39,895 nucleotides of DNA from a virus. Its lineage: Duplodnaviria; Heunggongvirae; Uroviricota; Caudoviricetes. The stretch's first letter is position 1; the number at the start of each line of letters is the position of its first letter. This document shows positions 4,053-39,895 of the stretch, in pieces. The notes beneath the pieces were generated by a model. It was not told where the DNA came from, did no database searches, and saw only the letters and a list, made by a program, of their open reading frames with translations. A program made the translations under genes and the position numbers. Where the stretch lies: IMG/VR virus record IMGVR_UViG_2519899564_000019; one strand, given 5' to 3'.

Positions 4053-4274
4053 ATGGCGGTATTTTATATTCCTGATATTTACGGACGCTTTTACCTGGTT
4101 AATTTCGATAACGTGAAGGTGATTTCACTGGCCGAAAATAAAGAATGTGGCGATTTACTTTTTGAATTTAATGACCGCACACGAATGGTGATATCTGCCG
4201 GACTTGATCGCGAAGGTGCGACAGAAGTTTACAGCGGAATATGCCGTTCTGTTGGTGCGAAACAAGTCAGCTAA
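4053..4274 (+). CDS. hypothetical early protein (74 aa) at the position occupied by kil in Mu
   Basis: ORF starting right after B stop; no recognisable motif; position only. Confidence 0.35.
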   Translation: MAVFYIPDIYGRFYLVNFDNVKVISLAENKECGDLLFEFNDRTRMVISAGLDREGATEVYSGICRSVGAKQVS

Positions 4275-4286
4275 ATGAGGTGTTAT

Positions 4287-4541
4287 ATGAATATGCAATC
4301 CTGCGGTAACAAAATGAATTTATTCGACTCCCTGAACAGCGCGCGCCGTCTGACCGAACTTGCCGGTGCGGTACTGGAACGCAGTAAGCGCTACCCACAA
4401 CGTTTTGCACTGAAAACCACGCCGCCGGTAGGCAACGTGCAGGGAACCGGTGAAATTGAAATCACCATACAGACCAACGGCCTGCGCCGCCGTGTGAAGG
4501 CCACCCGCATCAGCGGCTGCACGGTTTACTGGGAGGTGTGA
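4287..4541 (+). CDS. hypothetical early protein
   Basis: Track ORF 4275-4541; GAGG at 4278-4281 favours ATG 4287 or 4293 as start. No motif recognised. Confidence 0.4.
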   Translation: MNMQSCGNKMNLFDSLNSARRLTELAGAVLERSKRYPQRFALKTTPPVGNVQGTGEIEITIQTNGLRRRVKATRISGCTVYWEV

Positions 4542-5402: not shown

Positions 5403-5933
5403 ATGGCAAAACGCGTTACAAAATTAAAGGCCGCAGCAGAGGCGGCACCGCAGACCCGTGAAGAGGTCAGCAGCGATATCCGCACCCTGGGCGATATTCA
5501 GCGAGAGGCGCTGCGCCTGGAAACAGCGATGAATGATGAAGTGGCAGAAATCACCGCCCGTTATACGCCGCAGATTGAAAACCTTAAAAAAGAAATCAAA
5601 GTGCTTTTTAAGGGGATTCAGGACTGGTGCAAAACCAACCGTGATGAGCTGACGAACGGCGGCAAAACCAAAACTGCCAATCTGACCACCGGAACGGTGT
5701 CATGGCGACTGGGGAATCCATCATGCAGCGTCAGTCGTGATGTGGAAGGTGTGATTGAAATGCTGCGCCGTATGGGCCTTGAGCGTTTTATCCGCACGAA
5801 AGAGGAAGTGAACAAGGAAGCGGTCCTGGCGGAGCCGGATGCGGTGAAAGGGATTGCCGGTATTAAGGTGAATAAAGGCGCTGAAAGTTTTTATGTCGAG
5901 CCTTTTGAACAGGACGCCGGACTGAATAAATAA
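5403..5933 (+). CDS. gam: Gam-like host-nuclease inhibitor (DNA end-binding)
   Basis: 176 aa; matches Mu Gam as recalled (TNRDELTNGGKTKTANLTTGTVSWR, RFIRTKEEVNKEA, PFEQ near the C-terminus); expected position in the early region. Confidence 0.8.
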   Translation: MAKRVTKLKAAAEAAPQTREEVSSDIRTLGDIQREALRLETAMNDEVAEITARYTPQIENLKKEIKVLFKGIQDWCKTNRDELTNGGKTKTANLTTGTVSWRLGNPSCSVSRDVEGVIEMLRRMGLERFIRTKEEVNKEAVLAEPDAVKGIAGIKVNKGAESFYVEPFEQDAGLNK

Positions 5934-6030: not shown

Positions 6031-7110
6031 ATGGCATATTTTTATTTCAAATTAGACCGTGTGCAGACAAATAAATATTTCACCAAATATCAACAGACTG
6101 TTTTACCGCTACGCAACAGTATTCTTCGGGCATTACTGAAAAATACAGGCGCTGCCGGATTGCGCTTAAAGCCGTTTGCCATGGACGTAATCAGTGAGTT
6201 TTATTTTTCTGGTGCTCTGCCTGCGGGCTGGCGTAAGCGCGATGATGTGGCTTTTATCGGGGACGGACCGTGCTTTATTGCCAGACCTGATGAGTCATGC
6301 CCTGAAGGTCCGGCGATTGCCGCAATGATTGAAACCGCTGAACGTGAGTTAAGAAAGCGTCCTGATTTCCTTGTCTGGCTCTGTGAAAAGCTGGGGGTAA
6401 TGAGAATCCCCTCCATGTTTAACACGGACTCCTGGTGGACCCCGTCGCTCTCCCGTGATGCCCTGTGCGTGGTGTTTAAAGTAGGCGCTTATGGCAGGGA
6501 AATAAAAGGGTGTATTCCTGAAGAATGCCAGGAAATTAAACATTCTGAATATGTGGCGCTGACGGAGGAATACTTCATGATTGATGCAAAAGTGCTTGAA
6601 GGGGTTAAAAACTGGCTGAGTATTTACGGGCGTCTGACCTGCGGCATTCTGGCTGAAAAAATGAATATGCCGCCATCCTCGATGGTTTATTTTCTGCGTG
6701 ATGCGGTCGATGCCGGGGTGCTGACGGAATGTAACGGTTTTTATGATATTCCGCGTCCCCGCCCGGTGCAGCCGGTTCGTCGCAAATGCAGCCAGGAAGG
6801 TGCGGCTGATGATGTTCAGTGGTGCAGCTTCAGAAAATCCCTGCCGTGGATTGAGGGGCATGATATTCCGTCGATGGCGTGGGAATTTGCTCAGGGCGTA
6901 CTGACCTGCGAAACCGTTTATGTGGTGGCTGAAGTTGATGAGCAGGCCATGAAAGAAGGCGTGCCCCAGTTTGTGATGGCGTATATCGACATTCGCCTGG
7001 GTGTCATTATCTGCGGTTTAAGCGGCTGGAATATCACCGAACATGTTCTGCGTTACCTGATTGTTGACCGGACGGCTGCACCTGCCGGGATATCTGCGGA
7101 GGTGGCGTAA
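6031..7110 (+). CDS. hypothetical protein (359 aa), early-region cargo
   Basis: Long ORF with upstream AAGGAACAGG; no motif I can assign; first gene of a translationally coupled series. Confidence 0.5.
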   Translation: MAYFYFKLDRVQTNKYFTKYQQTVLPLRNSILRALLKNTGAAGLRLKPFAMDVISEFYFSGALPAGWRKRDDVAFIGDGPCFIARPDESCPEGPAIAAMIETAERELRKRPDFLVWLCEKLGVMRIPSMFNTDSWWTPSLSRDALCVVFKVGAYGREIKGCIPEECQEIKHSEYVALTEEYFMIDAKVLEGVKNWLSIYGRLTCGILAEKMNMPPSSMVYFLRDAVDAGVLTECNGFYDIPRPRPVQPVRRKCSQEGAADDVQWCSFRKSLPWIEGHDIPSMAWEFAQGVLTCETVYVVAEVDEQAMKEGVPQFVMAYIDIRLGVIICGLSGWNITEHVLRYLIVDRTAAPAGISAEVA

Positions 7111-7625
7111 TGTTCTTTAAAACATCAAACCCTTCCGCGCTGGCCGCGTGGCAAAAATATCAGCAGGACTGCCAGAAAGTTAAGGATGAGGCAAAACGCC
7201 TTGAGGCCGTGCTGAATGTTGCGTGCCGGTCGGTATTTGTATCCGGTATCAGTGGCTTTTGTTTTAAAGGGCTGCGCTTTATGGATGACAAATATCCTTT
7301 TCATCGCGACTTATGGCGAAAACCGACTGCGTCGAATGGCTGGAGCTGCACACCGCGCACATCACGTATTCCCAAAGCCCTGCGCGTTGCCTCTGACGAA
7401 CTTAACAGTCTGTGGCGTGAATATTCGCCCGTCACGTATGCCAGAACCGATGCACTGTTGTTCTGGCTGGGTATTGACTTCTCAGCAATATTGCATGGTC
7501 CCGTGAAGTGGTTCTGCGTTGACGATGTTATTTACCTTCAGTGCGAAGATGATTCCGCAAAACGGAAAATGACCGAAATTCTGTCTGATGAGTTTTATGC
7601 TGCCGAAAAGCGAGTCGGGGGGTGA
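7110..7625 (+). CDS. hypothetical protein (171 aa), early-region cargo
   Basis: ATG overlaps the upstream stop (TAATG); no motif recognised. Confidence 0.5.
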   Translation: MFFKTSNPSALAAWQKYQQDCQKVKDEAKRLEAVLNVACRSVFVSGISGFCFKGLRFMDDKYPFHRDLWRKPTASNGWSCTPRTSRIPKALRVASDELNSLWREYSPVTYARTDALLFWLGIDFSAILHGPVKWFCVDDVIYLQCEDDSAKRKMTEILSDEFYAAEKRVGG

Positions 7626-7628
7626 TGC

Positions 7629-8180
7629 ATGATGAAATTACAACCCATGGGGAGAAAAGGCCGTGCACCCGCTCATGTTCGCGCATGGACACCTGAAGAA
7701 GATGCGCTGCTGATTGCGCTTTATCCATCCACCCCGGTTAAGGATATTGCTGTCAGGATAAAAAGAAGTTTCTGGGGTGTACATAACCGGATTGTTTTAT
7801 TACGCGGTACTTACCCGGAGTTGCTCAAATGCAAACGCCTCAGATTTAAACCTGATGAAGATAAATTTATCCGAAAAAATGCCAGGACGATGACCGGTAA
7901 GCAAATAGGAGAATATCTGGGGCGAGACCGGGATTCTGTCCACAATCGGGCGCGATATATTGGCGTAAGCATGAAAAAATACGGAGAATTGCTGCCTTTT
8001 ACCCGCATACCTGACGATGATGTTCATCTTATTCGTGAATTACGGGATGCTGAATCACCACGACGTCTTACCTTCCGGGAAATAGGCGAGAAATTTGAAT
8101 TATCCGAGAGTACGGTGAATTTTATTTATCACCATCGCCGGACTGCCGAAGATGTTGTATTACGGGAGTTAATGCCATGA
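7629..8180 (+). CDS. hypothetical protein with three degenerate helix-turn-helix-like repeats (183 aa)
   Basis: Three internal repeats of about 45-50 aa each beginning with an acidic motif (WTPEEDALL / FKPDEDKFI / IPDDDVHLI), two of which end in HNR; resembles Myb/SANT-type tandem DNA-binding repeats by eye only. Confidence 0.45.
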   Translation: MMKLQPMGRKGRAPAHVRAWTPEEDALLIALYPSTPVKDIAVRIKRSFWGVHNRIVLLRGTYPELLKCKRLRFKPDEDKFIRKNARTMTGKQIGEYLGRDRDSVHNRARYIGVSMKKYGELLPFTRIPDDDVHLIRELRDAESPRRLTFREIGEKFELSESTVNFIYHHRRTAEDVVLRELMP

Positions 8181-8488
8181 TAACGACATTATTTGTTGAA
8201 TCAGACGAGCCTCTGGTATGTGTCGCCGGAATGTCGGTTTGTGGCGGAACGCTGACCGGTGTTTATTTCGGGGATTTGCGCGGTTATCCCTGGCATTCAC
8301 TGGATGACGCATTTCCGCCTGATATGGAGGCTGTCGTGCTGATTGTTCAGTATGGTGACCAACAGGAACTGCGCATCGGCCATATGGGGTATGAAGGCTT
8401 TTTTATTGATGAAGAAACCGGAGCCTGCCTTGAAGATGAGGACGGACAGGTGACGCACTGGTGCCATATTTCAGCTTTACCGGAATGA
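8177..8488 (+). CDS. hypothetical, strongly acidic small protein (103 aa)
   Basis: ATGA start/stop overlap with upstream gene; about 19 Asp+Glu versus 3 Arg/Lys. Confidence 0.45.
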   Translation: MITTLFVESDEPLVCVAGMSVCGGTLTGVYFGDLRGYPWHSLDDAFPPDMEAVVLIVQYGDQQELRIGHMGYEGFFIDEETGACLEDEDGQVTHWCHISALPE

Positions 8489-8853
8489 CGGGAGGTGAAT
8501 GCGTGAGAAGTTATATTGATAATGAAAAACTGAAGACAATCAGCGACTGTCTTAGCTTGCTGGCAAAAATAAAAGAAACCATTGAAGAGATTAAATTTCA
8601 GCTTGAATACGAACCCTGTGGCGATGATACATGGCGTAACTCTGCCAGAAAAGCACTAGCTGTCTTTCAGAAACAACGCCGGACTGTTGAATACCGCCTT
8701 GCTGTATTGCGCCAGGAGGAAAAGGAAAGAAATATAAGACGTCATGAACTCGTTAATGATTTTCTTGTTCGTGAATTAAAGGAGCGTGTGCCGGAGTCGG
8801 TATTTTTTGAGTGTGAGGCTGTTGCCCGTAGCAAAGCACTGGAAACTGATTAA
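8485..8853 (+). CDS. hypothetical early protein
   Basis: Track ORF 8461-8853; ATG 8485 overlaps the upstream TGA (ATGA), or GTG 8503 follows GGAGG at 8491-8495. Charged, helical-looking sequence. Confidence 0.4.
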   Translation: MTGGECVRSYIDNEKLKTISDCLSLLAKIKETIEEIKFQLEYEPCGDDTWRNSARKALAVFQKQRRTVEYRLAVLRQEEKERNIRRHELVNDFLVRELKERVPESVFFECEAVARSKALETD

Positions 8854-9391: not shown

Positions 9392-9677
9392 TTCTCTGTT
9401 GTTCTGGTGCTTATATATCACATCCTTTTTCGGCGCATTTGTTATTACCCGGTGGTTATGTCGAAAAATCATCTGCTTTTTTGATAAAAGACATCCGGTT
9501 GAACGGGCGGCTGATGCGCTCATTCAGCAGGCCATTGTGTTATATAGCGGTGAATTTTTCTGCCGGATAACAACCAGAGATGGCTGGCACATAATGATTA
9601 TTCCACCAACACACCATGCCCGGTGGGATGAGGCAGAAAAGGCTTTCCATGTCCGTAAAAAGGTAAATACGGTATGA
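9381..9677 (+). CDS. hypothetical small membrane protein (98 aa)
   Basis: N-terminal hydrophobic segment LLFWCLYITSFFGAFVITRWL. Confidence 0.4.
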   Translation: MDNSSLLFWCLYITSFFGAFVITRWLCRKIICFFDKRHPVERAADALIQQAIVLYSGEFFCRITTRDGWHIMIIPPTHHARWDEAEKAFHVRKKVNTV

Positions 9678-10183
9678 GAGGAAAACTGATATCCGCCATT
9701 CATGTGGCAAAGCGCGAGCTTGCCCTGGATGATGAGACTTATACATCCGCGCTGCTGGCAGCCACCGGCAAAACCAGCTGCCGGGATATGTCACCGGATG
9801 AGTTATCCCGCGTGCTGGATGTTTTCAAAAAACGCGGTTTTAAAGTGCGTCAGAACCCGGTTAACCGGGCCTTAAAACCGGGTACGGTGACCGCCAGAAT
9901 TCGCGCCATCTGGAAGGTGATGCACCGGCAGGGCTTTATCACCGATGGTGCGGAAACCGCCCTTAACCGCTGGGTGAAATCGCAGACGGCCGCGCAGAAC
10001 GGCGGCGAAGGTGTGGCAAACTGGCAGTGGCTGGAGCAACACCCCGCCCTGGCCTCAGATGTGCTGGAGCGTCTCAAGCGATGGCACCGCCGCAAAATGC
10101 TGGCCGCGATGGGAATGCCCGAACGCACGCTGATGGGGTATGACGCCGTTTGCAGGCAGTATGAAAAATCACTTCCCCGTTAA
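9674..10183 (+). CDS. gemA: GemA-like protein (Mu gp16 family), last gene of the early operon
   Basis: 169 aa; N-terminus LISAIHVAKRELALDDETY and position just before the Mor/C-like gene fit the Mu gp16 family as recalled. Confidence 0.65.
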   Translation: MRGKLISAIHVAKRELALDDETYTSALLAATGKTSCRDMSPDELSRVLDVFKKRGFKVRQNPVNRALKPGTVTARIRAIWKVMHRQGFITDGAETALNRWVKSQTAAQNGGEGVANWQWLEQHPALASDVLERLKRWHRRKMLAAMGMPERTLMGYDAVCRQYEKSLPR

Positions 10184-10188
10184 CTCCA

Positions 10189-10218
10189 AATCCCGCCACA
10201 ACGCGGGATTTTTATTTT
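10189..10218 (+). terminator. Rho-independent terminator after the early operon
   Basis: Perfect 8-bp stem AATCCCGC / GCGGGATT with a 6-nt loop, followed by TTTATTTT, 6 bp after the gemA-like stop. Confidence 0.7.
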
Positions 10219-10252: not shown

Positions 10253-10678
10253 ATGGCAGAAACTCAGATGAGCATGTTTGGTGGTGACAGTGAGCAACTG
10301 CACGCCCTTATCGACCGCCTTGATGACATCCCTGATGATGTTCTCAAAAAGAACTGGCCGCGGACCCTGTCAGAACTGGTTGAAGTCACCGGCGCAGAAC
10401 TTCAGCGTCAGGGGATTGAGCCGGTACTGGCCGGTAAACTGGCACGCAAGGTGGCTGCGGCTCAGGCAGCCTATATGGGCGGACGGGGTTATTACCTGCC
10501 GGTCGGGGAATCTCTCTTTGCCGAGCTGCGAAACAATGAGATATTTTCGCGCTGGGACCGGGGCGAGAAAATTGAATCCCTTCGCCGCCATTACCGGATG
10601 TCAGAAACCCAGATTTATAACGTCATACGCGAACAGCGCCGTCTGCATCTGGCAAGAACGCAACCGCCACTTTTCTGA
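10253..10678 (+). CDS. Mor/C-family transcriptional activator (middle/late gene activator)
   Basis: 141 aa; C-terminal HTH-like region (RRHYRMSETQIYNVIREQRR) typical of the Mor/C family; only one such homologue in the window, so Mor versus C cannot be decided. Confidence 0.7.
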   Translation: MAETQMSMFGGDSEQLHALIDRLDDIPDDVLKKNWPRTLSELVEVTGAELQRQGIEPVLAGKLARKVAAAQAAYMGGRGYYLPVGESLFAELRNNEIFSRWDRGEKIESLRRHYRMSETQIYNVIREQRRLHLARTQPPLF

Positions 10679-10749: not shown

Positions 10750-11250
10750 ATGCCAAAACTCCCCGCACCACTGCGTAAAAAGCTGATTGCCCTTGTTCTG
10801 GCCGGTGCCGGGACGTTCACGATTGCCACGCATTACACCGGTTACTGGGAAGGGAAAGAAAACTCCACGTATATCGATCCCACCGGTACACCCACCATCT
10901 GTTACGGCCATACCGGCCCGGATGTGAAACCGGGTATGACCCTGACAGATGAAGAATGCCTGGAACTACTGGAAAAGGACATGAAATGGGCCTTTGCGGC
11001 CATTGATCGGCGTGTTCAGGTGCCGCTTACCCGTGGTCAGACGGTGGCGCTGGCTTCGTGGATCTTCTGGGCCGGTGAAACGAACTTTCGCAACTCCACG
11101 CTTCTGCGCCTGATCAATGCCGGGCAGATGCCCGCGTCCTGTAAGCAGTATATCCGCTGGATTTATTCAAAGGGGGTGAAACTCCCCGGCCTTGAGGCCC
11201 GCCGTTCGGCGGATGAATGGTTATGTCGCTACGACTTGCCGAAAGTCTGA
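10750..11250 (+). CDS. lys: SAR-type endolysin (lysozyme)
   Basis: 166 aa; N-terminal weakly hydrophobic Gly/Ala-rich segment (LIALVLAGAGTFTIA) followed by a lysozyme-like domain; Mu lys position. Confidence 0.8.
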   Translation: MPKLPAPLRKKLIALVLAGAGTFTIATHYTGYWEGKENSTYIDPTGTPTICYGHTGPDVKPGMTLTDEECLELLEKDMKWAFAAIDRRVQVPLTRGQTVALASWIFWAGETNFRNSTLLRLINAGQMPASCKQYIRWIYSKGVKLPGLEARRSADEWLCRYDLPKV

Positions 11251-34061: not shown

Positions 34062-34622
34062 ATGCTGATTGGCTATATACGCGTATCAACAAATGACCAG
34101 AACACCGGTTTACAAAGAAATGCGCTGGAATGTGCAGGATGTGAGCAGATTTTTGAAGACAAAATGAGTGGTAAAACGACACAGCGGCCGGGACTGAAGC
34201 GGGCACTGAAGAAACTAAAACCCGGTGACACGCTGATGGTCTGGAAACTGGACAGGCTGGGGCGCAGTATGCGCCACCTTGTTGCGCTGACAGATGAATT
34301 ACAGCAACAGGGGATAAATTTTCGTAGTCTTACTGACAACATTGATACGTCAACCCCCATGGGGCGCTTCTTTTTTCACATAATGGGTGCGCTGGCAGAA
34401 ATGGAGCGTGAATTAATTGTCGAACGGACACGGGCTGGTCTTGCAGCAGCCCGTGAAAGGGGACGAACCGGCGGCAGACCCCGCCGTCTCACGCAGGAAC
34501 AATACGAGCAGGTCGGGCGTTTACTGGCCGGGGGTGTCAGTCGAAGACAGGTGGCACTTATTTTTGATATCGGTCTTTCAACCCTTTATCGTTATTATCC
34601 TGCGAGCGTTTCGGAAAAATAA
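34062..34622 (+). CDS. gin: Gin/Hin/Pin-family serine DNA invertase
   Basis: 186 aa; N-terminal catalytic motif GYIRVSTNDQ, resolvase-like core and C-terminal HTH; adjacent to the invertible segment. Confidence 0.9.
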   Translation: MLIGYIRVSTNDQNTGLQRNALECAGCEQIFEDKMSGKTTQRPGLKRALKKLKPGDTLMVWKLDRLGRSMRHLVALTDELQQQGINFRSLTDNIDTSTPMGRFFFHIMGALAEMERELIVERTRAGLAAARERGRTGGRPRRLTQEQYEQVGRLLAGGVSRRQVALIFDIGLSTLYRYYPASVSEK

Positions 34623-34721: not shown

Positions 34722-36770
34722 ATGACGTCCAAATGGGTTCAACTATCATCAATGCCCGGAAACTTTACTGTTAAAGTTTCCGGTGGTACAGCGGCATTTC
34801 TTGAGGCTCCCTTTCCTCCGGCCGAAACAAAAGGAGGAATGACATTTGCTGACTGTCTCATCAGTTTTAATACACAGGATTGCCTGTGGGTAAGGCCAGT
34901 ATCCGGTGATCCGAACGTGGAAATTACCGGAGCGGGTATTGGTGCTGTCATTCCGTTAAGTGCTGATGTTGCCGGTACTACTGAACCGTCAGACTGGGAT
35001 AATGCAGAAACACATACCCGTCCGGCAGGAAATGAAACGGCTTCCAGCTCCCCTTCCTGGTATTACGTGATTGTTATAGCCGGCCAGTCCAATGCTTCAT
35101 CTTATGGTGAAGGGTTGCCCCTTCCGGATTCTTATGATCGTCCTGATCCACGTATTATGCAGCTGGCACGCAGGAATACACAAACCCCCGGAGGTATTCC
35201 CTGCAAATACAATGAAATCATTCCAGCAGATCACTGCCTTCATGATGTTCAGAATATGAGTCTGCTGAACCATCCAAAAGCAGACCTGAAAAAAGGGCAG
35301 TATGGTTGTGTGGGGCAGGGACTTCATATTGCGAAAAAAGTATTACCGGTGATTCCTGCTGATGCCGGGATTTTACTGGTTCCCTGTGCCCGTGGCGGCT
35401 CTGCTTTTACAACCGGCGCAGTTGGCTCATTCGATCCGGCAAGTGGTGCAGCCGAGGCGTCACTACGCTGGGGAGTGGATACCCCACTGTATCAGGATCT
35501 TGTCAGTCGAACTAAAGCGGCACTTGAGGCGAATCCAAAGAATGTGCTGTTATCTGTCGTATGGATTCAGGGGGAAGGAGACCTTAAAGCGACCCCGGCC
35601 CAGCATGGTGCCCAGTTTACTGCGATGGTGAAAAAATTCCGTGCGGATCTTGGTGCTTTCTCCGGTCAGTGTATTGGTGGTTCATCAGACAGTGTGCCGT
35701 GGTTATGTGGTGACACAACCTATGACTGGAAAGAGAAGAACCCGGCGGCATATGAAACCATTTATAGCGGATATAAAAACCGGGCTTCCGAGAACATTCA
35801 CTTTGTTCCACTGATGCACGATGAGTTCGGTAATAAAACCGCGACCAACCTGCCGGAGCACGACCCGGATATCGCTTCTGCCGGGTATTATGGTGCGGAA
35901 TCACGGGGAGATGGCAACTGGACAACAGCATCCAGGGCAACCCATTTTAGCTCCTGGGCGCGCCGTTTTCTGGTCTCAGATCGTTTTGCATCAGCAATTC
36001 TTAAATATGCAGGTCTGACCTCTGCATTTATTGCCGGTGTGGCCCCTGATGGTGAAGCCCTGCCTCAGCCCGCGCCGGGTGGGAAACCGGAAGCGCCGAC
36101 AGGTAGTCAGCCAGGAGGCAGTGAGTCCCCCCATCCGACATCCCCGTCACTCCGTACGCTGCTTTCACTTAAAGCATCAGCAGGAGAAGCCCCGGCTCAG
36201 GGCTGGAAAATTACAGATGGTACAATCCAGCTGACGGACGAAGGTAAAGCGTTGACCGTATCCAAACAAAGCGGAAAAACCTGGACGCTTACCCATGGAA
36301 CTGATGCAGCCGGTGAACTTCTGAAGCATGGTGGTCAGTTGACCTGTAAATTCCGTCTGTCAGGTGAAGTAAAAGAAGGCCAGTTTGCTCTGGGTATTTA
36401 CCTCCACACCGATACGGTCCCGGAAGGTGTAACCATGAGTGGTACAGGCACACCGTTCCTGATGGCGTATTATCTCCAGACAACAGGCGGCCAGTTAAAT
36501 CTGATGCACCATAAAACAGGGGGGAATACGAAACTGGGATCATTTGGAGCCTACAATAACCAGTGGCATACACTTGTCCTGAAGTTTACGGCGGGAAGTG
36601 CCCAGGTAACGCCTGTGCTGGATGGCACTCCGGGCCAGGCATTCCAGATGGTGAAAGATGCACTTTCCCCTGCCAAAGATACGCTGACACTGACAGATGT
36701 CACCAAAGGGGCAACTTATGGCGTGTCTTTTGAGAGCGTTGTCCTTGAGGTTAATACCCCTGCGGCATAA
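34722..36770 (+). CDS. cargo protein (682 aa) with a GQSN-type esterase motif; possible carbohydrate O-acetylesterase of the kind carried by prophages
   Basis: Motif IVIAGQSNASSYGEG resembles the catalytic block of SGNH/sialate-O-acetylesterase-like hydrolases; Gly/Thr-rich beta-looking C-terminal part; no signal peptide; inserted between gin and com where Mu has none. Family assignment from motif only. Confidence 0.5.
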   Translation: MTSKWVQLSSMPGNFTVKVSGGTAAFLEAPFPPAETKGGMTFADCLISFNTQDCLWVRPVSGDPNVEITGAGIGAVIPLSADVAGTTEPSDWDNAETHTRPAGNETASSSPSWYYVIVIAGQSNASSYGEGLPLPDSYDRPDPRIMQLARRNTQTPGGIPCKYNEIIPADHCLHDVQNMSLLNHPKADLKKGQYGCVGQGLHIAKKVLPVIPADAGILLVPCARGGSAFTTGAVGSFDPASGAAEASLRWGVDTPLYQDLVSRTKAALEANPKNVLLSVVWIQGEGDLKATPAQHGAQFTAMVKKFRADLGAFSGQCIGGSSDSVPWLCGDTTYDWKEKNPAAYETIYSGYKNRASENIHFVPLMHDEFGNKTATNLPEHDPDIASAGYYGAESRGDGNWTTASRATHFSSWARRFLVSDRFASAILKYAGLTSAFIAGVAPDGEALPQPAPGGKPEAPTGSQPGGSESPHPTSPSLRTLLSLKASAGEAPAQGWKITDGTIQLTDEGKALTVSKQSGKTWTLTHGTDAAGELLKHGGQLTCKFRLSGEVKEGQFALGIYLHTDTVPEGVTMSGTGTPFLMAYYLQTTGGQLNLMHHKTGGNTKLGSFGAYNNQWHTLVLKFTAGSAQVTPVLDGTPGQAFQMVKDALSPAKDTLTLTDVTKGATYGVSFESVVLEVNTPAA

Positions 36771-36827: not shown

Positions 36828-37007
36828 ATGACATATATAAACGTCTGCCTGCTGTATTTCTGCACGGTGGTTTGTTGTCTGTTGCTTGTCAGCGGTGGTT
36901 ATAAAATTATTCGCAATTATTTTCGAAATAAAATTGATGCAGCTGCCGAGGAAAAGATAAAAAGCGGTGCTGTAATGCCGCAGCCGAAAGACTCCGGTCA
37001 GATTTAA
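36828..37007 (+). CDS. possible small membrane protein (59 aa), not in the ORF track
   Basis: ATG 36828 preceded by TAAGAGTGAGG; N-terminal hydrophobic Cys-rich segment VCLLYFCTVVCCLLLV, then a charged tail. Confidence 0.3.
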   Translation: MTYINVCLLYFCTVVCCLLLVSGGYKIIRNYFRNKIDAAAEEKIKSGAVMPQPKDSGQI

Positions 37008-37042
37008 TTTTTTGTGAACCAGAAAAGGAAAGGAGAATATTC

Positions 37043-37288
37043 ATGCCAGAGATTAAAGGCACGGTTACTGAAGAGCTTGTCAAACAGGCACTTTATTCTG
37101 AAGAAGTGAACCGCGTGCTGAAGGCGCAGGTTCGCAAGGATTTTGAGGCACAAATCGACGCATATGTTGATGAAGTGCTGGCCCGAATGGTTGGTCGTTC
37201 TCCGGCTGAAAACAGCACGGAAAATGAGCCTCAACCCGTAGAGCAACCAGAGCCGGTTCAACCCGGAACTGACGGTACTATGATGTAA
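37043..37288 (+). CDS. hypothetical small protein (81 aa) with acidic Pro/Glu-rich C-terminus
   Basis: ATG after AAAGGAAAGGAG; followed by an 8-bp-stem hairpin at 37298-37317. Confidence 0.4.
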   Translation: MPEIKGTVTEELVKQALYSEEVNRVLKAQVRKDFEAQIDAYVDEVLARMVGRSPAENSTENEPQPVEQPEPVQPGTDGTMM

Positions 37289-37297
37289 CAATACCGA

Positions 37298-37317
37298 CCG
37301 GCAGGTTTCCCTGCCGG
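37298..37317. terminator. Hairpin after the 81-aa gene (possible terminator)
   Basis: CCGGCAGG-TTTC-CCTGCCGG perfect 8-bp stem; the downstream tract is only partly T-rich. Confidence 0.4.
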
Positions 37318-37639
37318 GTGAATTTGTTAATGCACGTTTTGTGTATTTTCCCTCCGGGGAGAACAGGCAGGACATATCAGCATCCTGAAACAGGAAGCAT
37401 TTTTTGGTTTGTATGTCTTGCCATTTTGAGATCGAGAACGGCGATAGATGAGCTGTAAGGGAGTCTTACAGGCAGGGCAAACAGGCTCTTTATCCATGAT
37501 AAAGATCTCCTTTTTATGCATCTCTGCTTTACAGGAGACCGGGGAATATCATAGGATACGCCACGAGCTCGAAGTAAAGCATTGATGCAAAATTGTCTAA
37601 ATCGGCCCAGAATAGTTCGCGCTATCTGGGTCGCCCTTT

Positions 37640-37906: not shown

Positions 37907-38107
37907 ATGTATCGAAACATACGGTGCCGACACTGCAATAAGCTACTGGCACGGGCCAGTTTCAGTTATCTGGAAGTAAAATGTCCGCGCTGTAAAACCC
38001 TCAATCAAATCACATCTCCGAGCGCCACAGAGCACCCCACATACACAAGGAAATCCTGTCGTGGGGAACAGAAAGCAAGTCACATCCCGTATCATCAGCA
38101 CGCCTGA
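37907..38107 (+). CDS. com: Com-like zinc-finger translational activator of mom
   Basis: ATG 37907 after [16 protein letters not shown]...CPRCK zinc-finger pattern parallel to Mu Com; 3' end overlaps the mom start. Confidence 0.75.
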
Positions 38108-38798
38108 ACTTATTCGCTATAACGACAATATCGTTGGTTATGGCTCCCGTGAGTTGCGGGTTGAGACAATAAGTTGCTGGCTGGCCAGACTGGTCATCGT
38201 CAATAAACATTACAGCCACCGTTTCGTAAATAACTCCTACCTTCATCTGGGTATATTTTCAGAACGGGAACTTGTTGGCGTAATGCAATGGGGTTACGCC
38301 CTTAACCCAAACAGTGGTGCACGCGTCGTAACGGGTACGCAGAACCGAGAATATATGGAGCTTAACCGGCTATGGATGCATGACTGTATGCCGAGAAACT
38401 CCGAATCAAGGGCAATCAGTTACGCGCTCAAGCTAATCAGGCAGCTTTATCCGCAGGTACAGTGGGTTCAGTCGTTTGCAGATGAGCGTTGTGGCTGTCT
38501 TGGTGTCGTGTATCAGGCAAGCAATTTTGATTATGTAGGCAGCCATGAATCAACATTCTATGAACTTGATGGCGAGTGGTATCACGAGATTTGCAGGAGT
38601 GCCATTAAACGAGGCGGACAACGAGGTGAACATCTGAGGGCTAATATCGACAGAGCCAGTGTGCATAAGTTCCGACAGTTTCGTTACATCCGGTTTCTGA
38701 ACAAGAGGGCCAGAAAACGCCTCAACACAAAGCTATTCAAAGTCCAGCCTTACCCAAAACCACAAACAGTTAAAACTGGTTTGAAAGAGAGTGAATGA
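38061..38798 (+). CDS. mom: Mom DNA-modification protein (adenine modification, anti-restriction)
   Basis: 245 aa; close match to Mu Mom as recalled ([71 protein letters not shown]); overlaps com. Confidence 0.9.
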
Positions 38799-38834
38799 GC
38801 GCTTAAAAACTCATTCTAAAACTCAAAAGAAAAG

Positions 38835-38907
38835 CGCCGATTTAGTATCAAATAAGTTGCGTATCGGCGTTTTTCAGCGGTATCAAATGAAATGCAAATC
38901 GGTATCA
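38835..38907. repeat. Prophage right end: three direct GTATCAAA-containing repeats (candidate transposase binding sites) and terminal CA
   Basis: GTATCAAA at 38845-38852, 38880-38887 and 38902-38909 (exact end uncertain to about 20 bp); hairpin CGCCGAT...ATCGGCG followed by TTTTT at 38835-38875. Confidence 0.55.
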
Positions 38908-39895
38908 AAAAAATCGCCGCGCTATAATAGAGATCACTAATTTCAAAAGCACCAGGCGATACATAAGTTTGGTAAATGGTGTAACCATTTTGCTTAATCG
39001 TTATCTGGGCATTGCTTTTGGCGATACCACGCACCACAGGCGCAAACCCTTTCAGGCTGTCTGGCAGCATGTTGTCATCTGACGCCAGCTGCACACCACG
39101 AAAGCTGACACTATCGAAAAAATCGCCTGCAGTATAATCATCACCTACGGTCAGTTCGCCTTTTAGTGGAATAACCGCCCGCTGCAAATAGCTGCTGAGA
39201 TTCTTCCATTCTGCGGTTTGGCCACTACTGCGACTCCATGTTGAATTGTTGCGCAATCTCCATGGGCCTAAATTAACGCCACTGTTTAAATTCAGAAAAT
39301 AGCTGTCGCCAGAATCACTGTCTGCGCTGCTATGAATACTGTTAGCCCCGCTAAACGAATATCCCAGTAATAGCGCGTTGATCCCTTCATCCCAACGTTC
39401 AGGGGGGACATAACCACGGGCATTACTTTTGATGGCGATTTGCGGTACTGAAATTTCCAGACGGAGTTTATTCACATTAAACGTTACGCTGGCATCCGGA
39501 ATAATCTCCGCCAATGGCACACACGCTTGTTTGTCCAGTTGTTTAAAAGCCGGAAACGCATCAGTATTAACACCCATTGCATCCAGGCTTTCAGTCGTCA
39601 AACAGGCGGCAATCCCCTTCTCTGGCGTTATCTCAACAAAATTGACGTTGCGCGTATCTACAATTGTCTGATTCAGAACAATATCGACACGATAAACCCC
39701 TGGCGTTATTTTTTGTCCTTTTTCGAAACGAGACAAATCGGCCACCATTGAGGGATCATCTTTGAAAAAAGCAGGATCGAACCAGGTTTCAGCTTGTGCA
39801 TTGAACGCTGCCGACACAAACACCACCAGCCCACCAATAAACGATGGCACTCCACCAGAGCTTAACAGGCTGTGTTGTCGATGAGTTCTATACAT
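38908..39895 (-). pseudogene. Fimbrial usher (FimD/PapC family) N-terminal fragment, truncated by the prophage insertion
   Basis: Minus-strand ORF begins at the window edge with a signal peptide and an usher N-terminus (ARGYVPPERWDEGINA, FRGVQLASDDNMLPDS, ITIKQNGYTIYQTYVSPGAFEISDLY); after ...YSAA the frame runs about 32 codons into prophage sequence to a stop at 38816; ushers are normally about 800-900 aa. Confidence 0.75.

Follow-up and report, generated by a model that had tools for sequence, protein, structure and literature searches.

A conserved hyper-acidic protein from the early region of a Mu-like Escherichia coli prophage as a divergent member of the DUF551 superfamily

The small, strongly acidic protein encoded in the early region of the analyzed Mu-like prophage (the whole 39,895-nt stretch of DNA is further referred to as the window) is the product of a real gene, which is under strong purifying selection, and its residues 39–103 form a divergent DUF551 (PF04448) domain. 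Sequence comparison assigns this phage protein, annotated as "hypothetical", to the DUF551 superfamily, with a two-module architecture. Concerning its role, the most likely reading, to which we give a probability of about one half, is that of an accessory, cytoplasmic protein acting as a stoichiometric binder of a basic surface of a host (or phage) protein.

Genomic context, alleles and distribution of the gene

The window comprises a complete Mu-like prophage of the Sp18 type of E. coli. The order of its genes was established with Pfam matches and BLAST comparison with phage Mu, and the Mu-type genes found include c, ner, A, B, gam, Gp11_C, gp12, GemA, Mor/C, lysozyme, and Mom. The gene of the acidic protein is localized in the early accessory ("semi-essential") region, after gam/gp11/gp12 and before gemA, on the same strand as these genes. 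The features of this locus are collected in Table 1.

Table 1. Features of the locus encoding the acidic protein (positions refer to the window).
Feature	Position	Strand	Evidence and remarks
SANT/Myb-like helix-turn-helix (HTH) protein, basic (pI 10, net charge +12)	7629..8180	+	Weak Pfam HTH/Myb matches; phrog_323 "transcriptional regulator"
Shine-Dalgarno-like GGGAG	8163..8167	+	9 nt upstream of the ATG; read from the sequence
Coding sequence of the 103-aa acidic protein	8177..8488	+	ORF listing, composition, phrog_6925, PGAP, dN/dS
N-terminal module, residues 1–38 (MITTLFVES...GGxLxGVYFGD)	8177..8290	+	Common to P0059/P0071; weak phrog_3876 matches
Divergent DUF551 (PF04448) domain, residues 39–103, ending VTHW...LPE	8291..8485	+	Profile, BLASTP, Foldseek
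Allele-specific premature stop, TGA for TTA of longer alleles	8486..8488	+	Nucleotide comparison with L010 and L002
116-aa gene, phrog_6158	8503..8853	+	phrog_6158 match; PGAP start in E2855

The ORF listing confirmed the predicted 103-codon reading frame, with its ATG start and TGA stop. Its product is identical with WP_000633442.1, which bears the PGAP name hypothetical protein in strain E2855, and it belongs to phrog_6925 (4.7e-52). The exact protein sequence was found on at least 1000 public contigs. The dN/dS ratio reached 0.08 in comparison with the Salmonella allele and 0.12 with another E. coli allele (overall 0.06–0.12), and the differences between alleles are concentrated in third codon positions.

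At ATGA (8177–8180) the start of the gene overlaps the stop of the upstream one, whose product is named by PGAP a SANT/Myb-like DNA-binding domain-containing protein. The original prediction placed the gene last in a coupled cassette; this description holds only in part, as the tightly packed genes of the same strand run on as far as gemA. The predicted early status has purely syntenic support, namely the localization of the gene in a Mu-type early operon, with gam on one side and gemA on the other, which suggests that the gene is probably an early one. No convincing internal promoter or terminator was found from gam to the hairpin at 10188–10211. The acidic protein resembles the products of the Mu semi-essential early genes (gp11–gp15/E10–E15, gemA) in the same operon and position, as well as in being small, tightly packed and non-essential, although none of the genes of the equivalent Mu interval (gp13, gp14, and Mu_54) is homologous to it. 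It is worth mentioning that a host-modifying function has been described for one gene of the Mu early region, i.e., Mup07, known as gnarl2 (bioRxiv 10.1101/2023.04.06.535777).

In the 109/110-aa alleles, the stop codon and the GTG with which the next gene starts share nucleotides (GTGA overlap). The allele present in the window has lost the last six residues through a TTA to TGA change, and 14 nt now separate its stop from the GTG at 8503. The 103-aa premature-stop form, which does not possess the acidic C-terminal tail of its relatives, is the commonest allele, which might mean that a part of the protein is less constrained; the residues lost lie beyond the DUF551 motif.

Among 5426 complete E. 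coli genomes, the gene was identified in 144 (160 places), whereas gp12 and gemA, which flank it, were present in 232 (274 places). It is thus dispensable, as it is carried by approximately 60% of the related E. coli prophage copies. In the prophages of O157 Sakai (Sp18) and DLI.5a, a single ORF encoding a hydrophobic 61-aa protein stands in place of the interval 8177–8853, i.e., the acidic-protein gene together with the 116-aa gene. Homologs occupy the same slot in Mu-like prophages of Serratia, Salmonella and a further host (loci L006, L007, and L008); phage Mu has none. A tblastn search against 50,697 phage records gave only two matches, both to Stx-phage records with an inserted Mu-like phage, and a scan of contigs of species-representative genomes indicated one genome, that of Citrobacter braakii. 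A HMMER search against 1.84 billion representatives added only the Serratia-type and two more distant homologs; two other proteins retrieved in it (P0022 and P0023) were rejected as spurious eukaryotic repeat proteins (fn3 "DEDGPVTH" repeats). Across genera, the position of the gene, as well as the architecture and the charge of its product, are retained down to about 35% identity.

Two-module architecture and predicted structure

The full 103-aa protein gave no Pfam match at E ≤ 0.1 and no NCBIfam or PADLOC match, and within PHROGs it matched only phrog_6925. When the C-terminal domain was isolated, the PF04448 model scored it at 14.6 bits (E 0.063), below the gathering threshold of 22 bits; the homolog P0021 reached 15.9 bits, and YfdS, an accepted member of DUF551, itself scores 22.2 bits. 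Several comparisons support the assignment. YfdS matched phrog_6925 at 7e-13, over the region of residues 39–103. The alignment of the acidic-protein family with Pfam-annotated DUF551 proteins (hhalign) yielded a probability of 98.2% and an E-value of 2.8e-14 over 89 columns, the match beginning at residue 11 of the acidic protein. In a BLASTP search, residues 38–103 were similar to a 121-aa protein (3e-8, 33% identity) that scores 30.4 bits with PF04448.

The joint alignment shows full or almost full conservation of residues W39, P47, V53, G60, G68, T81-G82, T93-H94-W95, and P102-E103. The acidic protein thereby displays the DUF551 hallmark, i.e., a C-terminal domain of about 65 residues that ends with (V/I)THW...P.PE and follows W..(D/E)..P with a hydrophobic strand.

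The closest architecture is that of P0059 and P0071, 114-aa proteins of lambdoid prophages, in which the same N-terminal module precedes a DUF551 domain. The stand-alone P0059-type proteins share with the acidic protein this module, a size of about 110 aa and a pI of about 4.05, and both they and YfdS of CPS-53 have the homologous C-terminal domain of approximately 65 residues with the same end motif, (V/I)THW..(I/M)P..PE. Like the acidic protein, these DUF551 (IPR007539) proteins are encoded in the early accessory part of temperate phage genomes. It should be stressed, however, that the identity with P0059 and YfdS amounts to 22–33%, that the acidic protein remains under the curated cutoff of Pfam and that its domain is more acidic than canonical DUF551. 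Moreover, it is encoded by a transposable Mu-like phage, whereas the P0059-type proteins belong to lambdoid ones, and its N-terminal module is of beta type, while the N-terminus of YfdS is a coiled coil. Independent mobility of the N-terminal module, considered on the basis of P0014 and P0030, was rejected, as both are sporadic fusions to downstream genes that arose by deletion, e.g., to the Salmonella PF04447 gene.

Searches of PDB sequences with the protein and two profiles gave chance matches only, i.e., gp84 of 9zd7 (E 0.5), HisH, and MHC; the relation to gp84 was rejected, since this match was gone when the profiles were used. No solved DUF551 structure was found in the PDB-based searches.

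An AlphaFold model built from the joint alignment was of moderate confidence, with a mean pLDDT of 75.3 (53–71 for residues 1–38 and about 85 for the DUF551 domain); a model from a shallow alignment (pLDDT 52.5) was discarded. The model predicts a small domain of all-beta fold that bears acidic loops. In the Foldseek comparison with BFVD, about 33 of the 50 best matches bore a DUF551 annotation (E 3e-3 to 0.15, probability about 1.0, TM up to 0.8 by target length), where models on both sides are predicted ones and the matches may be biased by the presence of DUF551 proteins in the input alignment.

Charge and its conservation

The original prediction counted about 19 Asp/Glu residues against three basic ones. 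The first number is exact (9 Asp and 10 Glu), while the protein has two Arg and no Lys. The strong acidity and the presence of acidic runs were borne out: the pI is 4.05, the net charge is −17.2, and the run FIDEETGACLEDEDGQ spans residues 76–91. With −0.167 charge per residue, the protein is the most negative one in the window, the next most acidic small ORF having −0.105.

All full-length homologs are acidic as well (pI 4.05–4.5, net charge −11 to −18), even at 27–38% identity, and at ten positions Asp or Glu occurs in at least 70% of the family members; the conserved acidic positions include E8, D33, D44, E51, E80, E86, E88, and D89. The acidity is thus not a matter of chance, and since the charge is kept under purifying selection, the protein is probably functional. 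By one-dimensional placement, the acidic residues are concentrated in the predicted loops 41–51, 61–64, 78–80, and 86–89. The DUF551 domain itself carries a net charge of −14 over 65 residues, and in the subfamily the charge of this domain is −0.21 per residue, against −0.05 to −0.09 in canonical DUF551. Hyper-acidity is therefore a trait kept in the subfamily and not a general one of DUF551.

Possible roles of the acidic protein

The binder mechanism that we favor is suggested by composition, domain architecture and context. The protein would be made early after induction or infection, its conserved carboxylate-rich loops would dock on a basic surface, probably one that binds nucleic acids or handles nucleotides, and the bound host (or phage) protein would be modulated or blocked, anti-restriction being one option among several. 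Stoichiometric action is the most likely one, because no catalytic signature is present and because DUF551 is otherwise appended to coiled coils, HTH proteins and dNTP pyrophosphohydrolases. Examples of such architectures are YfdS (coiled coil plus DUF551) and the protein of the L005 locus, in which PF04448 is fused to PF04447, a dATP/dGTP pyrophosphohydrolase domain. DUF551 is also known from HTH proteins, MazZ-type enzymes and the C-terminal domain of Ea22_V2 of Stx phages, and the C-terminal domains of Ea22 proteins have been called acidic and proposed to bind a host protein (PMC10834534). Similarly to the acidic protein, Ea22 of lambda and Stx phages is an early, non-essential accessory protein of temperate coliphages; however, it has a pro-lysogenic phenotype, it is larger and forms a tetrameric coiled coil with an Ead/Ea22 signature, which the acidic protein does not have, and the C-terminal domain of lambda Ea22 (PDB 8DSX) has a mixed alpha-beta fold and not that of DUF551. 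In the searched literature on DUF551, PF04448 and anti-defence functions of the Mu early region, no functional study of the acidic protein or of its domain was found.

The original prediction saw in the protein a candidate for DNA mimicry or anti-restriction, as known from inhibitors of the Ocr and ArdA types. Like the acidic protein, Ocr (T7 gp0.3) and ArdA are small, early-expressed, encoded by mobile elements and have a pI of about 4. Membership in these families was nevertheless refuted, because the protein has no Pfam, NCBIfam, PADLOC or PDB match and, as a divergent DUF551 protein, differs from them in predicted fold. Ocr has an all-helical fold and its dimer takes the shape of bent DNA, while ArdA forms an elongated dimer with three alpha/beta domains. 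The structure prediction proposed as a check of the original idea did deliver a fold, a small all-beta one, which is unlike both; neither Ocr and ArdA nor any other solved DNA mimic was among the structural matches of the model. Known DNA mimics have mutually unrelated folds, so an all-beta fold is not disqualifying for mimicry as such, in which the acidic surface would imitate the DNA backbone and, early in infection, fill the groove in which DNA is bound by type I/III restriction enzymes, by BREX or by some other DNA-binding protein of defence. The extreme and conserved acidity, with a pI comparable to that quoted for Ocr and ArdA, and the localization of the gene in an early operon, at a variable accessory site of the prophage, are in line with this reading, yet we regard it as doubtful. 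Elsewhere, DUF551 is attached as a module to enzymes and to proteins with coiled coils, and its acidity there is mild. Moreover, the Ocr dimer mimics about 24 bp, and beside it a 103-aa monomer with a barrel of about 65 aa is small. The prophage already encodes Mom, the classical anti-restriction function of Mu, and the literature search revealed no experimental link between the acidic protein and DNA mimicry. Beyond the charge, nothing ties the protein to DNA mimicry or anti-restriction. An equally speculative extension is that the hyper-acidic stand-alone DUF551 proteins, a subfamily composed of the Mu-like family and the lambdoid P0059-type, are a new class of charge-mimic inhibitors, which would act early in infection on a DNA-binding defence or nucleoid protein of the host.

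Another possible, albeit rather unlikely, role is that of an accessory subunit or of a targeting/regulatory module in deoxynucleotide metabolism or replication, with a replication- or dNTP-related host protein, which DUF551 would bind and which the stand-alone acidic form would modulate during Mu-type replicative transposition. Besides the PF04447 fusion mentioned above, this is suggested by the Salmonella homolog, directly downstream of which lies an overlapping PF04447 gene, and by CPS-53, where yfdS overlaps yfdR, encoding an HD-domain 5'-deoxynucleotidase. Overexpression of the yfdQRST cluster inhibits the initiation of replication and YfdR binds DnaA, but that work did not demonstrate a direct role for YfdS (PMC4776307). 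The association with nucleotide metabolism amounts to these three contexts, and no PF04447 or HD-domain gene adjoins the acidic-protein gene in the window prophage or in the Serratia and L007 contexts; the downstream genes of the window showed no relatedness to the Salmonella PF04447 protein. As for the coupled SANT/Myb-like protein, the ATGA overlap, the opposite charges (+12 vs −17) and the occurrence of the pair in both E. coli and Salmonella could point to an antagonist or partner of this protein, e.g., an anti-activator titrating it. We consider this improbable, as in Serratia (L006) and L007 the homolog directly follows gp12 or gp11, with no SANT/Myb gene, and strain JE86-ST05 has an intact acidic-protein gene together with a frameshifted SANT/Myb gene; conversely, Sakai Sp18 and DLI.5a retain the SANT/Myb gene, the acidic-protein gene being swapped for the unrelated 61-aa ORF. 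The SANT/Myb-like neighbor is hence a part of the context and no obligate partner. The least credible view is that of a decaying or functionless ORF, a prophage cargo of incidental acidity. The absence of the gene from approximately 40% of the related prophage copies, the premature stop in the commonest allele and the sporadic fusions P0014 and P0030 might be quoted in its favor, but it is disfavored by the low dN/dS between E. coli and Salmonella alleles, and also by the conservation across genera described above and by the nonsense change costing just six terminal residues past the DUF551 motif.

The placement of the acidic protein in DUF551 is a modest gain in annotation, concerning a very common protein of EHEC prophages that is labeled as hypothetical everywhere. 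As a small, hyper-acidic, stand-alone and naturally dispensable member of DUF551 in a genetically tractable E. coli prophage, it offers a handy route to the binding target of this domain. Should the partner of the acidic protein be a replication or dNTP enzyme, the finding would be relevant to the control of Mu-type replication, and should it be a defence or nucleoid protein, to phage counter-defence. If the charge-mimic idea were true, it would provide the first function for DUF551, a domain widespread in tailed phages, and Mu-like phages would have, beside Mom and Gam, a further anti-defence gene, an early one.

Gene reality and family assignment

The open reading frame proposed in the original prediction was found exactly where it had been placed (8177–8488, + strand, ATG to TGA, 103 codons), and it is a genuine gene. 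A GGGAG sequence lies 9 nt upstream of its ATG, which shares the ATGA tetranucleotide (8177–8180) with the TGA of the preceding gene. Comparison with a Salmonella allele (77% amino acid identity) gave a dN/dS of 0.08; the two differ at 79 nucleotides, of which 51 are third codon positions. For another E. coli allele the dN/dS value was 0.12. The exact sequence occurs in at least 1000 public contigs, unnamed on every one; PGAP lists it as WP_000633442.1, 'hypothetical protein'. Concerning its composition, the predicted 19 acidic residues were confirmed (9 Asp, 10 Glu), as was the acidic run FIDEETGACLEDEDGQ (residues 76–91), and the three Arg/Lys were corrected to two Arg and no Lys. The resulting pI is 4.05 and the net charge about −17, and the charge density (−0.167 per residue) is the most negative among the ORFs of the window, the next small acidic ORF (37043–37288) having −0.105. 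The latter (81 aa, pI 4.4) matches DUF826 and overlaps an opposite-strand ORF of 123 aa.

The whole protein had no matches in Pfam, NCBIfam or PADLOC, and within PHROGs it matched phrog_6925, a family without assigned function. The C-terminal motif VTHW...LPE, which we took to be a pointer to DUF551 (PF04448), was then put to tests. The isolated C-terminal domain and a distant homolog (P0021) scored 14.6 and 15.9 bits with the PF04448 model, both below the cutoff of 22 bits, which the accepted member YfdS itself exceeds just slightly (22.2 bits). YfdS matches phrog_6925 in the corresponding region (7e-13), and a profile-profile comparison of the target family with Pfam-annotated DUF551 proteins gave 98.2% probability (E 2.8e-14, 89 columns). 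In BLASTP, residues 38–103 matched a 121-aa protein of gut-metagenome viral contigs (3e-8, 33% identity), which scores 30.4 bits on PF04448. The AlphaFold2 model (joint alignment) is all-beta, with mean pLDDT 75 and about 85 at residues 41–100, and its Foldseek neighbours among viral models were almost exclusively 'DUF551 domain-containing proteins'. Residues 39–103 are thus a divergent DUF551 domain, preceded by a separate N-terminal module (residues 1–38), and the protein is a new, divergent member of this known but uncharacterised family. The same module also stands ahead of DUF551 in 114-aa proteins of lambdoid prophages (P0059 type), which have architecture and charge in common with the target. 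Its junctions with other C-termini (P0014, P0030) were rejected as true modularity, being sporadic deletions into downstream genes.

Prophage organization and the early-region slot

The window holds an entire Mu-like prophage of the enterohaemorrhagic E. coli Sp18 lineage, and its right end was placed at about 38.8 kb, since a host fimbrial usher gene begins about 20 nt past the end of mom.

Selected features of the prophage and its right flank
Feature	Position	Strand	Remarks
Repressor c	1–519	−	Prophage gene
ner, transposase A and B			Prophage genes
Gam	5403–5933
Gp11_C protein	6031–7110	+	359 aa
gp12 homolog	7110–7625
DUF551 protein (target)	8177–8488	+	103 aa
GemA	9674–10183
Terminator-like hairpin	10188–10211		Strong; 9-bp stem, then T-run; directly 3' of gemA
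Mor/C-family activator	10253–10678	+
Lysozyme	10750–11250
Gin-like invertase	34062–34622		Near right end
682-aa protein	34722–36770	+	Sialate O-acetylesterase-type SASA domain, DUF6645
123-aa ORF	37004–37375	−
DUF826 ORF	37043–37288	+	81 aa
Mom	38061–38798		Near right end
Fimbrial usher	38816–39895	−	PapC_N and Usher domains; runs off window

The target gene lies between gp12 and gemA, in the counterpart of the 'semi-essential early' genes of Mu, where Mu carries gp13, gp14 and Mu_54; no homolog was found among the Mu early proteins. The designation 'early' holds for this position in a Mu-type early region, and early expression would follow from synteny only. Homologs occupy the same place, right after gp11/gp12 and 5' of GemA, in Mu-like prophages of Serratia, Salmonella and one unassigned host. 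Apart from E. coli and Shigella, the family has a restricted range: it occurs in Salmonella, Citrobacter and Serratia and in a few metagenomic sequences, and only 1 of about 185,000 species-representative genomes contained it. Among 5426 complete E. coli genomes, gp12 is present in 232 (274 places), gemA in 231 (270 places) and the target in 144 (160 places). In O157:H7 Sakai Sp18 and DLI.5a, the counterpart of 8177–8853 (target and next gene) is swapped for one unrelated ORF of 61 aa, ECs_5772, which encodes a very hydrophobic product (MIRRLVFFAIIVPVWGVGFIF...) and was located at 4268–4453 of both the Sp18 locus (L009) and L013. By this replacement, the slot behaves as an exchangeable accessory cassette; the product of the incoming ORF was described as a small membrane protein.

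Decay or turnover was observed in the early regions of other E. coli copies: in S1-CAM-01-A (L011, 4794–5774), ISKpn26 (IS5-like) has displaced the genes that separate the target from gemA, and in JE86-ST05 (L012, 3720–4270) the SANT/Myb gene carries a frameshift and the region has gained a DUF2513 gene on the reverse strand.

The gene had been described as the last in a coupled cassette, which holds only in part: the packed gene row runs on to gemA, with no convincing promoter or terminator found inside it. In alleles of 109/110 aa, the target stop and the GTG with which the next gene begins overlap (GTGA). In the window allele, a TTA to TGA change at 8486–8488 removes six residues (LREVNA) and the overlap, leaving 14 nt before the GTG at 8503. 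The shortened allele is the commonest (at least 1000 contigs vs 159 for one longer allele).

Several other features of the prophage are worth mentioning. The 359-aa ORF unites two genes, which E2855 and Sakai keep apart as ORFs of 180 and 177 aa (the latter homologous to Mu gp11); a single TAA to TAC change erased the stop of the first gene (motif GAATACTTCATG, around 6570). The sole Mor/C-family gene of the region is located downstream of the post-gemA hairpin, and its product shows 39% identity to Mu C vs 27% to Mor; a second one was not observed in the stretch from gemA to the lysis genes, Mu having a Mor-then-C cascade. The 682-aa protein encoded between the Gin-like invertase and Mom looks like a moron.

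Acidity and possible function

Every full-length two-module member of the subfamily, including those only 27–38% identical, is acidic (pI 4.05–4.5, net charge −11 to −18), and at ten positions at least 70% of the members have an acidic residue. The domain of the target carries −0.21 charge per residue vs −0.05 to −0.09 in canonical DUF551, which indicates that hyper-acidity was derived and selected in this subfamily and is therefore probably important for what the protein does. In the AlphaFold2 model, the acidic residues fall mostly in predicted loops (41–51, 61–64, 78–80 and 86–89).

The DUF551 domain forms the C-terminal part of an Ea22_V2 variant of Stx phages and is present also in YfdS, HTH proteins and MazZ-type dNTP pyrophosphohydrolases; the acidic C-terminal domains of Ea22 proteins have been proposed to bind a host protein, yfdS mutants are sensitive to H2O2, and overexpression of the yfdQRST cluster inhibits replication initiation (PMC10834534 / PMC4776307). 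Like the target, Ea22 and YfdS are acidic early accessory proteins of temperate coliphages. The documented host-modifying role of the Mu early-region gene Mup07 (gnarl2; bioRxiv 10.1101/2023.04.06.535777) makes a host-directed function plausible for this region; our literature search found no screen that included the target protein.

The identity and genomic context of the target are near-certain, and its mechanism we infer. As DUF551 is a small non-catalytic beta domain found on varied partners, it would most simply be a protein-binding module, and its stand-alone, hyper-acidic form, encoded in an early accessory slot, would in the simplest case act stoichiometrically by binding the basic surface of some host or phage protein, a reading to which we assign a probability of about 0.5. 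A tie to dNTP metabolism or replication proteins is possible, if rather unlikely: among the compared loci, DUF551 is fused to PF04447 (dATP/dGTP pyrophosphohydrolase) in a lambdoid prophage (L005, 7583–8584), the Salmonella homolog of the target overlaps a PF04447 gene with its 3' end (L008, 5326–6396), and yfdS overlaps yfdR, an HD-domain 5'-deoxynucleotidase gene, in CPS-53 (L004, 6985–7874), but such a neighbour is missing in the window itself.

It is quite unlikely that the target is a DNA-mimic anti-restriction protein, as initially suggested by analogy with Ocr and ArdA. Membership of either family was ruled out by both sequence and fold, and the analogy with them fails; charge and context are the sole arguments for a mimic, the protein has no homology or fold likeness to any known one, and the same phage already carries Mom. 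That the target antagonizes the basic SANT/Myb protein of the coupled neighbouring gene is very improbable, as the gene pairing is not obligate, and a functionless remnant is hardly credible given the dN/dS result. That hyper-acidic stand-alone DUF551 proteins constitute a new class of charge-mimic inhibitors is also quite unlikely. A well-behaved 'hypothetical' gene has gained a family assignment, and its function is testable.
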